A DNA stretch of 56,108 bases from a virus (IMGVR_UViG_3300047560_001264:1-56108); one strand, 5' to 3'. Positions 3,959 to 12,900 are shown, counted from the stretch's first letter. Notes: generated by a model not told the origin, from the letters alone. Program-made: numbers and translations.

Positions 3959-6900
3959 ATGGCACAAAAAATAATCAATATTGGTATTCAAGGCAATGAC
4001 GGAACTGGTGATAGTATCCGTGATTCGTTCATAAAAGTAAACTCAAATTTCTCAGAGATTTACGCATTTTTTGGTGAAGGTGGTACGATCAAACTTAAAG
4101 ATTTGAGTGATGCCCCAACCAAAGGAAACGGCCAAAAGGGTTATGACGCAAACCAAGTTATTATGGGCAGCACAACTGGGGAGGCTCTTACAGCTAGAAC
4201 CCTAGTCGGTGACGGCATTCTTATCGATACAACTGACGATTCTCAAGTTGTGTTCAGAACTACAAACACTGGTTTAGTTAGTGATAACACACCAACATTA
4301 AACTCTAGTATCAATGCTCGTAAGTTGTACACAATTGGCAACTTGCCAGATCCATCACAAGCTCTTGTTGATGCATTTAATACAAAGTATCCTACTGCAA
4401 TTACAACACTAGGTGAATTACCAGTTAACGTAAGATACGCAGAAAATAACTTTATTGCTGGTTCAGGAACCCGTGATATTAACAATGAGATTGATGGCTA
4501 CAATATGTCTGTGCCATTAAAGCCACGTTCAGAACCACTAGTTGCTGACACATCAGCCGCAGATTTTGACGCAGCATTAAGTAGCAACTACCTAAGCACT
4601 GAAGCAATGCAACGTAAGGATACAGTATATCGCGGTGGCGATACTATGACTGGTCCTTTAACATTAAGCGATCACCCAGCACCAATTGCTGGCGCAGGTA
4701 TTGTTAATGGTACTGACGATTTCCAAGCTGCAACAAAGTATTATGTTGATAATAATACATATTACAGCAGTGCAAACTTGTATGTTAGCGCAGCGAAGGG
4801 CGACGATTTACAAGGTAAAACTCCTCCAGGGCGTGAGGGTAGTGCATGGCAATATGCGTTTAAAACCGTTGGTGCGGCTGCACTACATGCTGATAACATT
4901 ATTAACTTATCAACAACTGAGCCAGGACCATATCGCCAAACAATTACATACACAATTACCCCTAACCAATATCAATCAACAGTTCAAAGTTTCACACTTT
5001 CTGGTGGTAATAGCTCTGATACTGGTTACACTGATGCATCTGCATTATTGGAGGCAAACCGCTCGTTCATCCAATCAGAAACAATTGCGTACATTAACAA
5101 GAAATATGTAAACAGTTTCTCATTCACACCTTCTGTATATCAAAGCATCATTAGTAATATCCTAACTGGTGTTGGATATGACATGGTTTTTGATACAAAC
5201 CACAACTCAACTACACAAGCATCTATCCTGTTTAACTCATATAACAGCGATATTATTGATAACCAGTTGGCACAGATTATTGATGGTATTAACTATGCAA
5301 GAGATCAAATCCTAGAATACTCATACAGTGAATCAAATGTAAGAGCATATTTGGATGAAGTAATCAATGCACTATGTTATGACTTGTTATTTGGAGGTAA
5401 TTTCCAAAGTATTCAAGCTGGTAGATCGTTTAAGTATGCTAAAACTGATTTGGATAACAGCCAAATTGTAAGCGTACTAACTGATTTAAAGAACAATATT
5501 ATTGCAATTTCTGAAGTTGCCGGATCTCCATCTGCGGCAGTTCCATCATTCACAAACAACATTGCTGTTATCCAAAGCATCATCTTAACTGGCAAGTTAC
5601 CAAATCTATCAATGCCTGCACCATCAAATGCAGTTGTTGGTCAATCTAGTGCAAGAGATTTGTTATTGAACAACGTAGAGTTCATCCAATCAGAAATCAT
5701 TGCATACTTGTTAGCAAACTACCCAAGCATTACTTACGATCACGCAACATGCCGTCGTGACGTTGAGTATATTGTATGGGCATTAGCGTATGACCAAATG
5801 TACGGTGGCAATAGCCAAAGCGTACTAGCTGGCATGCGTTACTGGTATAACAATACTCTGCAAATTAACAGCACTGAGAAAGCAGCGACAATCGCTTCTA
5901 TTGGTTATATCAGCACACTAGCACAAGCTGTTATTACTAACACACCCCCAGTTATTGTGTACCAACAAAGCGTTACACAATACAACAACGCGACACTAAG
6001 CGGTGGTAACGTAGCCACTGCAAGCATTACTGCAAACATTGCAACTATTGTTGACATTGTTGACAGTGTAAGCGCACCATCTCCAACTGTAACACAACTT
6101 ACAGTAGCAAATGCTTCACAAGCGTTACGAGATATCAGAACTGCTGTACTTGCAAAAGAAACTCAATTGCAAGATGCTGAAATTTTATACATTTCAACAA
6201 CATTCCCAGTAATCAATAGCTCAATGGTTACCAATAATATTACATCATTATTTGGTACTATTACAAACTTATTAGCTGATGGTATTGCATCACGCACTAC
6301 ACCAACATACACGAGCCCAACTGGATTGTCTGTTGGTGTAACTCATGCTCGTCAAGCATTGCTGGCTAACATCAATTTTATTACTGCTGAAGTAAATGCA
6401 TATATTAATGACACTTACCCAGGTACAGTATACTCAGCAGATGCATCTACACGTGACATTACATATTTGATTGAAGCTATTTGCTACGATTTAACATATG
6501 GTGGAACTACTGCTACTACTATTGCAGCTAACCAATATATCGCAAATAATGCGGCACAATTGACAACTGGTTTACCAGCAGTTTGTGTTGATGCATTAAC
6601 TTATGCACAAACAGTTTCTGAATCTGTAATCCTAAACCAACCTATCTCTAACATTGCGTTGCATCAGTTAGTAGTTCCACAAGTTACTAACGTGTTGTGG
6701 ACAGGTGGTTCAGCTGCAACTGCCACCCTAGATGCAATGTTTAATGCAACTAAGGCAGTTATTACATCATCAACAGCAATGGTTGGTTCAGCACCATCAT
6801 TAGCTGGCTATGATACAACAAAATTAGCTGCTAGAACAATTATTGAAACCAATAAGAGTGCAATTTCAGTAAGCGTTACAAACTACCTAACTGCAACATA

Positions 6901-9900: not shown

Positions 9901-12900
9901 TAGCCAAACTTATGACATTTCAAATGCATTCTGGAATGGAATTGATACTAACTTAGCAGGCACACAAGCTGTTTGTTTGGCAACATATACACGTTTGTCT
10001 ACAATCTTAGGTCAAATTGTACAAAATACATCAATTTCTAAGTCTGCAGGTAACACATTAACGCAAAACACTAGCTTGCCAGCAAGTTCTGGTACAGTTG
10101 CAACGGCTATTGGTACATTGATGACCCTTGTCACTGACATTGTTACTGATGGTACAACTGCTACACCACGCACTAACCCAACAATTAGTGGCCAAGCAAG
10201 CAACCTAGTAACAAACTTTAACAATATTTCAAGTCACAAGTCGGCTATCCAAACTAGCACAGTTAACTTCTTGAATTCAGGTGGTGGTATTAACATTAAC
10301 ATTGAAATGGCCGGTAACCGTTCTATGTTGGCTAACGACTTTACCCAAGTTAACGATTTAGGTTATGGTATTGTTGCAACAAACGGTGGTGTAACTGAAC
10401 AAGTTTCAACATTTACATATTATAACCACACTGGCTACTGGGCTATTAACGGTGGACAGATTCGTTCTGTAGCTGGTTCTAACTCAAACGGTGATTATGG
10501 TATCCGTGCATCAGGTTATGACTTAACTGAATTGCCTGACCAAGTTAACATCACAAATGACATGGTACAAACTGCTCGTGTTTACAAGCAAGGTACTACT
10601 GCAAGCTTCATGGTAACATCATCTAGCGCACAGGCATTGTCAATTTGGATTATTGATTATGAGTATGTTCCAATGAACAACTCAGAACTTGAAATTGATC
10701 ACACATTAGCTGGTGGTACAATTTCTCGTTACCTAGTTAGCTCTGTACAACATACAAACATTGTTATCAATGGCAAGAACGTATTACAATTGGGCCTAAG
10801 TACAAGTGGTACAAACAGTACAAGTACTACTGGTTTAGTGTACTCATTATATCATGGTCAATTGGTTACAATCCGTATCCTAAACAACATTCAATTGAGC
10901 GGTGTTGTGCAAGTTCACCCAGTACGTCCAAGTACTGCGTTGCAATACACATCTAACTTGTCAGATATCTACAGAATTATTTCTTATCAATTGACAGCAC
11001 CTACTGGTGAAACCTTACCATCTACTAACGCAATTGTGCAAAGTGATACTTCGTTTGCTTACTTCCGTATTGTTACAGACGTAAACAATATTACACAAGC
11101 AGACCCAGCTGATGGTTCTAAGACACAAGGTAGTAAAGTTGGTGACAACAAGATTGCTGTTCAACCAATTTCGTTAGCAAGCACTATTGCACAAATTGAT
11201 ACTGGTACATTCCTGTTTGGTTGGAACGGTAGAACACACCGTGTAGTTTCATATACACCACCAACAAGTATTGCTACTGGTACAAACTTAGTAACAACTG
11301 GTGTATTAAGTGGAGCAGCGTCTTCAGGTAACTACTTAACATTAGATTCAACCGCTAGCTTAATCATTGGTGAGTCAATTACATTTACAGCAGTTACACA
11401 AACTCCAACGATGACTGCAACAACTCCAGTTGGCAACTACATTACATTGAGTTCAGTAACTGGATTGCTAATTGGTGAATCAATTATATTCTCAGCAGTT
11501 GCTCAAACTGGTACTGCTACTGTAACTACTGCTTCTGGTAACTTAATTACTGTTACTAATACAACTGGTATGGCTGCTGGTGAACAAATCACATTCCTAG
11601 GAACTGGATTTGGTGGTTTGAATAACGGTACATATTACATTACCAACGTTGCTAACGGTACACAAATTACAGTAAGTACATCGTTTGGTGGTCCAAACGT
11701 AACAGTATCTGATGGCTCTGGTACAATGGCATACTCTGCAGGTACATACTTCGGTGGTGTAACTGCTGGTACTACATATTACATTAAGAGTATTAATGCT
11801 GGTACACGCCAAATCACTGTTAGCTCATCGTTCAATGGCACAACATTAACATTAACAAATGGTGGTGGTAACTGGACATCAGTCGCAGGTAGCGTATTTG
11901 GTAACTTAACTTCAGGTTCTAACTATTACATCCTATCTAATGATGCCGTAAGTAAGAGAATCACAATTAGTACATCGTACAATGGATCAACATTCGCAGT
12001 AGGCGATGGTGTTGGTGCATGGGTATCAAGAGGTGGTTCAAATACAAGCAGTACAACAATGGCATTGAGCAATGTTGCCGGTGCTATCATTGTTGGACAA
12101 GCTATTACTGGTACTGGCTTCTCAGGTGGTCAAACTGTTTCAAGTATTGTTGTACAAGGTACAAAGACATTGGTTGTACTGAGTGCAATTCCTAACTCAA
12201 CACCAGCAGGTACAATTACATTTGGTGTAACAACCAACGGTTACTTGAACATTGATCCAAACCCAGTATACAACATTGCTGCTGATGGCTCAAACATCAA
12301 CGCATTAACTTATAATACAAAAGTTGCTGGTCCAGTTGGAACAACTTTAGAGTTTGTAACATTTGATACACCATACAATACAGTTCCATCAACAGATGGT
12401 GCTATTACTATTGCAAACAACTCAAACACTTCTTATAACGGTACATACCAAATTTCAAGTGTTGTAAATCAATCAACTATTAACGTTGCTGCAACAACTG
12501 GTATTTCTATTGGTATGGTGTTATCTAGTACAGAACCTGGAGCAACAGTTCCAACAAGCTGTATTGTTCAAAGTGTTAACACAACTTACTTCACAGTAAG
12601 CCCAGCAGTTTGGCTACCAGCTAACTCAGCAATTAGCGCATTGATTCCAACTAGCGTTGCAACAATTAATATTACAAACGGTGGTAGTGGGTATAGCGCA
12701 TCTAACCCACCAACATTAACATTTAGTGGTGGTGGTGCAACTGCACAAGCGTTGGCAACATGTACTGTTAATAATGCAGGTATTATCGACTCAGTTACAT
12801 TAGTCAGTGGTGGTTATGGTTATACTAGCTTGCCATCATTAATGGTTGGCGATGGGACAGGTAACGCTGTGTTGACTCCAGTATTGAGTGCAACAAGTAC

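Follow-up and report, generated by a model that had tools for sequence, protein, structure and literature searches.

A giant predicted baseplate fiber protein of an uncultured jumbo phage contains tandem phycobiliprotein-like modules with a conserved thiol site

Overview of the module-bearing fiber protein

A giant gene, P0001 (positions 3959..15583, + strand; 3874 aa), was identified in the viral sequence IMGVR_UViG_3300047560_001264:1-56108 (56,108 nucleotides; hereafter the window, meaning the whole stretch of DNA that was analyzed). P0001 is predicted to encode a baseplate-attached fiber protein, along which nine copies of a helical module are arranged in tandem. Judging from sequence comparisons, the module very probably shares common ancestry with phycobiliproteins (PBPs). 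It also probably carries a conserved ligand-binding or reactive thiol site, formed by helices E, F and G. As a whole, the results may best be explained by a baseplate fiber composed of PBP-homologous modules, each of which would take up a bilin at its site thiol, a reading that we favor tentatively.

Nine modules in the fiber protein

A single open reading frame (ORF) spans the whole repeat region. The six full repeats of P0001, 117 aa each and 26–32% identical to the first, were aligned (alignment A1), and the A1 profile detects nine instances in the protein. Six of these are full, with E values of 1e-42 to 1e-49; the other three, which are partial or degenerate, have E values of 3e-9, 5e-8 and 2e-6. 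This agrees with the initial annotation, in which about nine repeats, roughly three of them degenerate, were counted. The nine instances jointly cover nt 5015–10048 (P0001 residues ~330–2030); the repeats are thus confirmed, while the span of 5030–10270 given for them is replaced by that of the profile. Directly adjoining full repeats are spaced by 158 and 162 residues, indicating a module unit of ~160 aa.

Module 1 (4934..5359, +; aa 326–467) is degenerate and has Y, S and I instead of C, R and D at the site (A1 profile E 3e-9; envelope of the unit hidden Markov model, HMM). It is followed by a partial module (5354..5512, +) that contains only the second half of the E-helix block (A1 profile positions 51–103, E 5e-8). 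Module 3 (5501..5998, +) is full and contains CRRD, with Cys598 at nt 5750 and the site residues C, R, D, D, A, Y, E and T. Module 5 (6680..7180, +; CSRD, Cys992 at nt 6932) and module 6 (7847..8341, +; CGRD, Cys1385 at nt 8111) are also full, as is module 7 (8330..8827, +; CSRDIGY, Cys1543 at nt 8585), which has 167 aa and serves as the reference unit for numbering. Modules 3, 5, 6 and 7 were identified by the motif scan, the A1 profile and the unit HMM. A further partial module is located at 9386..9532 (+; A1 profile positions 37–85, E 1.7e-6).

The remaining two full modules, identified by the motif scan and the unit HMM, show a swapped thiol. Module 4 (6194..6667, +) reads STRD (Ser830, nt 6446) and has Cys876 (nt 6584) at unit position 134, and module 9 (9566..10060, +) reads SQRD (Ser1961, nt 9839) and has Cys2006 (nt 9974) at the same unit position. 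Both had been described as repeats without Cys; the CxRD Cys is indeed missing, but each repeat has a Cys 46 (C876) or 45 (C2006) residues downstream. A regular-expression scan reproduced exactly all six motif coordinates that had been reported before (CRRD 5750, STRD 6446, CSRD 6932, CGRD 8111, CSRD 8585 and SQRD 9839).

Elsewhere, the A1 profile detected 531 instances in 92 ORFs from 81 sources, and in a search of 1.84 billion proteins the number of representative proteins matched at E ≤ 1e-3 was at least 1413. Since the same profile matches all of these, the repeat pattern is far beyond chance. Module-bearing proteins contain 5–36 copies each and reach lengths of up to 6382 aa. The database records seen label such proteins as hypothetical, structural, tail-fiber or "large exoprotein", and none as PBP-like.

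Relationship to phycobiliproteins

The A1 profile was compared with 177,635 PDB sequences (E ≤ 10), and all 43 matches are PBPs. The top match is R-phycocyanin alpha (E 0.0017), with profile positions 35–66 aligned to chain residues 73–104. The matches center on Cys84 (chain residues 73–104), and some reach back to residue 34. A precomputed annotation with the PBP family PF00502 is present on 20 among the 120 best relatives listed (manual count). When six relatives, chosen because they already had this annotation, were re-scanned, all six scored above the cut-off of 22.2 bits (26.3–37.7 bits), with stretches of up to profile positions 11–128 and 30–153 of 155. Among 150 diverse single modules, PF00502 was matched by 14 at E ≤ 0.01, and any other Pfam family by at most one.

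A PBP HMM was built from 34 PBPs of eight classes from five cyanobacterial genomes. At E ≤ 0.01 it matched 50 of the 92 module-bearing ORFs versus none of 206 other phage ORFs, the domain matches covering PBP positions 11–161, and it matched the window protein with an E of 1.1e-5. Alignment of module alignments with PBP alignments by hhalign gave probabilities of 89–94% and P values of 1.5e-7 to 2.5e-6 over 60–100 columns; with 401 module rows, the probabilities were 89.7–93.9% and the P values 1.9e-6 to 1.5e-7. The column-reversed control gave a P of 0.17, and all 30 column shuffles gave P ≥ 0.16. The confident part of the alignment places unit positions 49–108 on PBP positions 36–106 (helices A, B and E) and continues at lower confidence to PBP position 145. 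The CxRD chromophore motif is aligned column for column at the Cys84 position in helix E; it is present in four of the six full window modules, and the other two keep R and D. The claim in the initial annotation that an upstream helix and the CxRD-GY...Y..GG block align to phycocyanin is therefore borne out by hhalign, and the PDB, Pfam and genome scans are PBP-specific.

A six-frame A1 search of 151 cyanobacterial genomes returned 30 matches in 24 genomes, all at profile positions ~34–66 and in open frames of 163–192 aa; the one match that was checked is a PF00502 gene. No fiber-type multi-repeat protein was found in this search. The comparisons up to this point make up six independent lines of support for a relationship to PBPs. 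Among the PBP classes, CpcA scores best (16–20 bits), followed by CpeA (13 bits), and CpcB, ApcA, ApcB, ApcD, ApcF and CpeB score 0.4–9.6 bits. By these scores, the module is most like the phycocyanin alpha subunit (CpcA). A cyanobacterial CRRD-bearing PBP paralogue, BBAG-like by presumption only, scores -0.7 bits with the module profile. The module had alternatively been viewed as a free-standing relative of the PBP ancestor. This view is not upheld, as the modules are closest to CpcA and not to a divergent cyanobacterial paralogue. Small free-standing forms were considered and rejected: the seven short matches (127–208 aa) all lie on short contigs (six of ≤1.4 kb and one of 9.2 kb) and are probably fragments.

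An unrelated helical repeat could in principle have converged on a CxRDxGY...Y..GG-like motif with no common ancestry, which we consider highly unlikely. Such convergence would fit the fact that ~33 residues make up the best-matching block of each alignment, that a broad profile scores below a narrow one, and that the likeness to PBPs is one of sequence. However, the alignments exceed the motif, including the upstream helices A and B and, for several modules, extending to PBP positions 150–161. The specificity for PBPs is total in four independent databases, the shuffled and reversed controls give P ≥ 0.16 versus 1e-6 to 1e-7 for the real alignments, and the ~160-aa unit (spacings of 158 and 162 aa) has the length of a PBP subunit.

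Several observations nevertheless weigh against a close relationship to PBPs. The window repeats, singly or as the whole protein, fall below the PF00502 threshold. A 150-row profile scored the PBPs in the PDB more weakly than the six-row profile (best E 0.056), and 15 of its 17 matches were PBPs and two were unrelated chains. Only helices A, B and E are aligned confidently between profiles, and the C-terminal half aligns at low confidence. Under the tentative alignment, D60 (A1 numbering), Y116, E/Q130 and T134 have no PBP-conserved counterpart. Because the window repeats miss the PF00502 cut-off while relatives pass it, the module is classified by sequence as a divergent PBP homologue rather than as a member of PF00502 itself.

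In summary of likenesses, the module resembles PBPs, and CpcA in particular, in the ~160-aa unit, in helices A, B and E, and in the pattern K-C-x-R-D-[IV]-G-Y...Y.L..GG at the Cys84 chromophore site. Unlike PBPs, which are single-domain antenna subunits, the modules are arranged in tandem in a phage fiber (nine in this chain, and as many as 36 in others). The B-E loop of the module is ~10 residues shorter, and PBPs lack its invariant Asp (unit position 100) and the constellation of Y116, E/Q130 and T134. The X-Y dimerization hairpin was not matched with confidence, the confident hhalign alignment beginning at PBP residue 35–36. The gene neighbors are those of a phage baseplate and fiber and not of a phycobilisome operon.

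Coupled conservation and cysteine swap at the thiol site

A first set of 381 distinct module instances, covering profile positions 30–70, was collected from the window and 80 related loci. The CxRD Cys is present in 285 of the 381 (75%), and with it Arg in 276 and Asp in all 285. In the 96 modules without this Cys, Arg is present in only 39 and Asp in 48, yet Asp at A1 position 60 is kept in 94. As judged from this pattern, the Cys, Arg and Asp of CxRD are kept or lost together and appear to behave as one functional unit. Of 388 cysteines in this set, 285 fall in the CxRD column, and exactly one Cys is present in 263 of the 381 modules. These and the following counts of coupled loss and covariation come from related sequences and do not represent independent events.

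A second set contained 3371 domain matches in 3022 proteins or ORFs, of which 2240 cover unit positions 45–140. Duplicates and rows containing over 30 gaps were excluded, which left 1510 distinct rows (effective number 1367). C86 is present in 1400 of them (93%). Where it is present, R88 is found in 97%, D89 in 99%, D100 in 99%, Y116 in 99%, E/Q130 in 96% and T134 in 88%. Mean-field direct coupling analysis (DCA) of the 1510 rows ranked C86-T134 as the top pair, with a score of 5.46 versus 2.84 for the next pair. Other top-ranking pairs include C86-Y116, C86-E130, D89-T134, D89-Y116 and R88-A112.

The covariation of C86 and T134 is caused by a cysteine swap, from C86/T134 to S86/C134. C86 is missing from 110 rows: 36 of these have Cys134 (35 of them as S86/C134), and 74 have neither Cys. 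Both cysteines occur together in only four rows of the 1510. Because 263 of the 381 modules are single-Cys and C86 and C134 so rarely coexist, a conserved intradomain disulfide is excluded. The window STRD and SQRD repeats are of the swapped form (Ser830/Cys876 and Ser1961/Cys2006), so that a single site thiol is present in each of the six full window modules.

The swapped rows are diverse, with a median pairwise identity of 30%, and parsimony requires 14 changes of state on a tree built with FastTree from 370 rows, namely every swapped row (36), every row lacking both cysteines (74) and 260 C86 rows drawn at random from the 1400. The swapped state appears to be old or recurrent, trees of such short and diverged repeats being unreliable. 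We read these data as evidence that positions 86 and 134 would lie opposite one another and that selection probably acts on the thiol itself. The helix pairings predicted by DCA are B-E, E-F, B-G, F-G and E-G, which suggests a compact helical bundle. Many of the top pairs are spaced i/i+7 or i/i+8, consistent with the helicity of the module. B-E and B-G are canonical globin pairings.

An Asp at unit position 100 (A1 position 60), the D of YD in the YDLxYGGN of every full window repeat, is the most conserved residue among the 381 modules first collected (present in 379) and is kept in 99% of the 1510 rows. It is also kept where CxRD is lost (94 of 96; 99%) and has no counterpart in PBPs. In the cpeT-linked cyanophage modules described below, Asp100 is less constant (104 of 132).

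cpeT and module-bearing genes in T4-like cyanophages

The giant "short tail fiber / virion structural" proteins of T4-like cyanophages (the 3779-aa protein of S-PM2; T4-like GC 734) contain the same module family as the window protein. As in the window, the giant fiber gene of S-PM2 adjoins baseplate genes, and nine profile matches are found in two giant ORFs of this phage. The T4-like cyanophages differ from the window in having cpeT immediately upstream; the lineage of the window is separate, and its relatives are without cpeT.

A total of 80 viral loci were gathered with a CpeT alignment (A3), with CpeT identities of 36–100%. Downstream flank of 3 kb or more is available in 59 of the contigs. 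In 57 of them a module-bearing ORF lies 0.5–4.3 kb downstream of cpeT on the same strand, and the two exceptions have only 3.1–3.2 kb of flank. Modules upstream of cpeT were found in none of the 80 loci. The distance from cpeT to the giant module-bearing gene downstream is 1.4 kb in S-PM2. Among the 132 distinct cpeT-linked modules, 127 retain the site Cys. By gene order, a predicted bilin-lyase homologue is thus embedded in the baseplate/fiber region, directly before a gene full of PBP-like putative attachment sites.

Gene order upstream of cpeT is conserved to the same degree (gp5 is present in 55 of 56 loci and p216 in 56 of 56), and for this reason the adjacency of cpeT to the modules is not proof of functional coupling. 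It may reflect inherited gene order, that is, plain synteny. The type of lyase also weighs against bilin attachment, as the T-type lyases, according to the account in PMC10452541, serve Cys153 of beta subunits and not the Cys84-type site.

Further observations were made on these giant genes. A second giant ORF of S-PM2 (NC_006820.1, ~55.5–57.9 kb) lies in a 3340-aa open frame with five module matches, and three weak module matches are present in a 7312-aa open frame of P-SSM4 (NC_006884.2, ~70.5–75.5 kb); a cyanomyovirus can thus encode two or more giant proteins with modules. In S-PM2 (NC_006820.1, 160066–178410), 16 tRNA features and the tag S-PM2t009 are annotated within the coding sequence of the 3779-aa fiber, yet the frame is open for 3792 aa. 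This overlap looks like a clash of annotation coordinates.

Phage lineage and bilin genes

The window record was estimated by CheckV to be 15% complete, so a 56-kb record implies a genome of ~370 kb. The DNA polymerase in the window is 49% identical to that of Sinorhizobium phage Phosso, 45% to that of Agrobacterium phage Atu_ph07 and ~43% to those of E. coli jumbo phages (350–385 kb). Closer relatives are metagenomic: the DNA polymerase of G052, a 100% complete genome of 364,554 bp, is 81% identical to that of the window, and that of G054 is 84% identical. On the basis of these comparisons, the phage is assigned to the uncultured jumbo myoviruses of ~370 kb and not to the classical T4-like cyanophages. 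An identity as a T4-like cyanophage had first been drawn from matches of the repeat region, which in a tblastn search of 50,697 isolate records hit 143 records (122 Synechococcus phages, 12 named "Cyanophage", eight Prochlorococcus phages and one "Marine"). It was ruled out by the DNA polymerase search and the genome size of the relatives. No isolate phage was matched in a megablast search with 20 kb of the window.

PF05996, PF06206, PF01126 and PF00502 had no match in the 56-kb record, in line with the earlier statement that no bilin lyase or reductase lies in the window. In G052, neither psbA nor CpeT was found in the complete genome. A cassette of genes on one strand (G052:262000-278000) comprises HSP20, ClpS, heme oxygenase (HO), two fatty-acid desaturases and ferredoxin-dependent bilin reductase (FDBR). 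The FDBRs of G052 and Pelagibacter phage Mosig share 51% identity, and the Mosig gene adjoins a heme oxygenase gene.

FDBR was found in two of 50 related jumbo records (G052 and G045). The same two records alone contain a conserved gene that flanks the cassette, so that the informative count is two of two; a second flanking gene is present in G052 only. The G054 record runs collinear with G052 as far as 223 kb, where it stops short of the position of the HO and FDBR genes (268–271 kb). The count of two in 50 was therefore withdrawn as evidence against a link to bilins. HO and FDBR are not next to the mapped module locus of G052, the former lying at 268–271 kb and the latter at 315–328 kb.

A general link between HO/FDBR and the module was considered and rejected, as Mosig has the cassette without the module and P-SSM4, which has pcyA, shows only the three weak matches. 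The module seems to be widespread in cyanomyoviruses, which makes tests by presence and absence uninformative there.

A 751-aa ATP-dependent protease is encoded at 37688–39943 (+) in the window (phrog_4871, E 5e-250). Together with the ClpS of G052, this predicted protease suggests that the lineage may manipulate host proteolysis. The DNA polymerase gene of G054 (G054:C1:166351-169080) contains one in-frame TAA, for which a sequencing error, an intron or intein boundary and recoding are all possible.

Possible ligand of the site and proposed mechanism

CXRD is the attachment motif of PBPs; as described in PMC10151467, its Cys bonds the A-ring of the bilin, and the Arg and Asp form hydrogen bonds with the chromophore. 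The ligand of the module site may accordingly be compared with a bilin, and on sequence grounds we regard this identity as possible but far from assured. In the proposed mechanism, a linear tetrapyrrole synthesized by the infected cell would be taken up by each module during virion assembly. The pigment would bind the site thiol by a thioether, within a pocket-like constellation that may be formed around CxRD by Y116, E/Q130 and T134 in a putative globin fold. The finished fiber would then carry an array of bilins.

The route of attachment may differ between lineages. In the lineage of the window, which has HO and FDBR and no CpeT, attachment would be autocatalytic and would be an analogous route to that of the BBAG globins. 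In the T4-like cyanophages it might be helped by the phage CpeT lyase. According to PMC10151467 (Rockwell, Martin and Lagarias 2023), the BBAGs (bilin biosynthesis-associated globins) are non-antenna PBP paralogues, and the CXRD-bearing BBAG-1 and BBAG-3 attach bilins without lyases. BBAGs are single-domain cellular proteins with genes beside pre-PcyA or HO, whereas the HO/FDBR cassette of G052 is apart from the mapped module gene.

A number of points weigh against bilin binding. The genes for HO, FDBR, CpeT and PBP are absent from the window, which covers only ~15% of the genome, and CpeT was found in none of the 50 related jumbo records, the complete G052 included. Pelagibacter phage Mosig has HO and FDBR and no module at E ≤ 0.01. 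To our knowledge, pigmented cyanophage particles have not been reported.

The main alternative, about as likely as bilin binding, is that the module is a PBP-derived unit without a chromophore. It would then be a rigid helical bead that builds and spaces a very long fiber, and its thiol site would serve for a metal, a small ligand, host-surface recognition, or a covalent or redox-sensitive link that hardens the fiber. The 5–36 copies per protein and the lengths of up to 6382 aa suit a structural repeat. The persistence of Asp100 in modules that have lost CxRD implies that the fold stands without the site, 74 of the 1510 modules are thiol-less at the site, and the window has three degenerate copies. 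Y116, E/Q130 and T134 are not residues of the PBP pocket under the tentative alignment, and the absence of CpeT from the jumbo relatives and the gene content of Mosig also fit this alternative. A purely structural role, however, leaves unexplained why a lone Cys is present in ~95% of full modules and why it can relocate to the facing helix. It likewise does not account for the joint keeping or loss of Cys, Arg and Asp, an intradomain disulfide is excluded, and the residues in common with PBPs are exactly those that contact the chromophore.

Heme, another cyclic tetrapyrrole or iron, the alternatives raised in the initial annotation, would be a very improbable ligand in place of a bilin. The globin-like superfamily and a site composed of one Cys, carboxylates and Tyr could accommodate it, and iron on phage fibers has reportedly been proposed. 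The likeness to PBPs, by contrast, lies at the bilin site; all 43 PDB matches are PBPs and none is a heme globin, and no conserved His occurs among the top conserved or covarying columns.

Implications of virion-borne modules

A fiber of bilin-carrying modules could be taken one step further. The modules would then be virion-borne biliproteins, loaded with bilins from phage HO and FDBR (and attached by CpeT in cyanophages), and would serve as a photoreceptor or array of pigments through which light controls adsorption. On the sequence data this extended proposal is unlikely. If true, it would explain the presence of bilin synthesis and lyase genes in phages, including phages without psbA or thought to infect heterotrophs, and also the light-only adsorption of some cyanomyoviruses, which is independent of host photosynthesis. 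PMC11480375 describes the purpose of phage hemO, FDBR and cpeT as unresolved, including in phages of presumed non-photosynthetic hosts, and names a bilin-binding globin as a possible acceptor. The finding makes both puzzles, the phage bilin genes and light-dependent adsorption, open to bench experiments. The functions suggested in the initial annotation, namely photoprotection, light sensing, iron scavenging and receptor mimicry, are speculation.

PBPs and BBAGs are known as cellular proteins, and a phage virion branch of at least 1413 representative proteins that keeps the chromophore site would be a new setting for the fold. Compared with PBPs and BBAGs, the modules differ, by sequence, in being tandem, virion-borne and phage-restricted, in having no recognizable X-Y hairpin and in having conserved residues of their own; the core helices and CXRD are shared. 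Even if the modules are chromophore-free, a host antenna protein would still have been recruited as a building block of the virus particle, and the relocatable thiol would need an explanation of its own. No prior description of PBP-like modules in phage virions was found in the literature covered, which lay mostly outside subscription journals and supplements.

Other parts of the fiber protein and neighboring genes

P0001 matches two PHROG families of giant tail fibers, phrog_4527 (E 8e-46) and phrog_5342 (E 2e-32). A T4 gp9/gp10-like N-terminal baseplate-attachment domain is predicted at aa 4–107 (3968..4279, +; PF07880, T4_gp9_10_N, 29.2 bits with a cut-off of 25, E 1.1e-6). The next four genes 3' of P0001 (15583..24771, +; 946, 1290, 275 and 535 aa) have PHROG matches to tail fiber, collagen-like minor tail and baseplate wedge proteins. 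Because of the fiber families, the N-terminal match above the cut-off and these tail and baseplate neighbors, P0001 is assigned by sequence as a baseplate-attached fiber protein, and its earlier designation as a virion protein is supported by the same evidence.

A Pfam scan of the whole of P0001 at E ≤ 0.01 matched no family, and a whole-protein phmmer search of the PDB gave two chance-level matches only (E 0.47 and 0.62). The likeness to T4 gp9 and gp10 is confined to the first ~100 residues, and everything in P0001 beyond the N-terminus differs from them; T4 gp9 and gp10 are not known to have helical PBP-like modules. A C-terminal domain (aa 3741–3867; 15179..15559, +) is common to other phage proteins (phrog_22593, E 7e-16). 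This domain may resemble the auto-cleaving intramolecular-chaperone ends of fibers.

A non-helical insert separates modules 5 and 6 (7148..7960, +). It is beta-helix-like by eye only, and its matches to Pectinesterase (E 0.14) and DUF4988 (E 0.079) are both sub-threshold. Similar non-helical stretches at 8801–9388 and 10049–11218 also alternate with the PBP-like modules. By eye, the inter-module stretches resemble pieces of a right-handed beta-helix, as if the modules interrupt or alternate with a tailspike-type domain. The Pfam hints in these stretches, CBM_2 (E 0.0024) among them, are all sub-threshold.

Several features lie 5' of the fiber gene. A 348-aa endonuclease is encoded at 2006–3052 (+; phrog_8420, E 1e-86) and appears from its sequence to be a UvdE-type UV-damage endonuclease. 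A low-complexity stretch at 3194–3554 contains four overlapping ORFs of 90–95 aa on both strands. The minus-strand ORF at 3267–3554 would encode a Lys/Ala/Pro-rich, basic, histone-H1-like protein. Directly before the fiber gene and on the opposite strand, a 95-aa ORF (3590–3877, -) has two CxxC pairs and appears zinc-ribbon-like.

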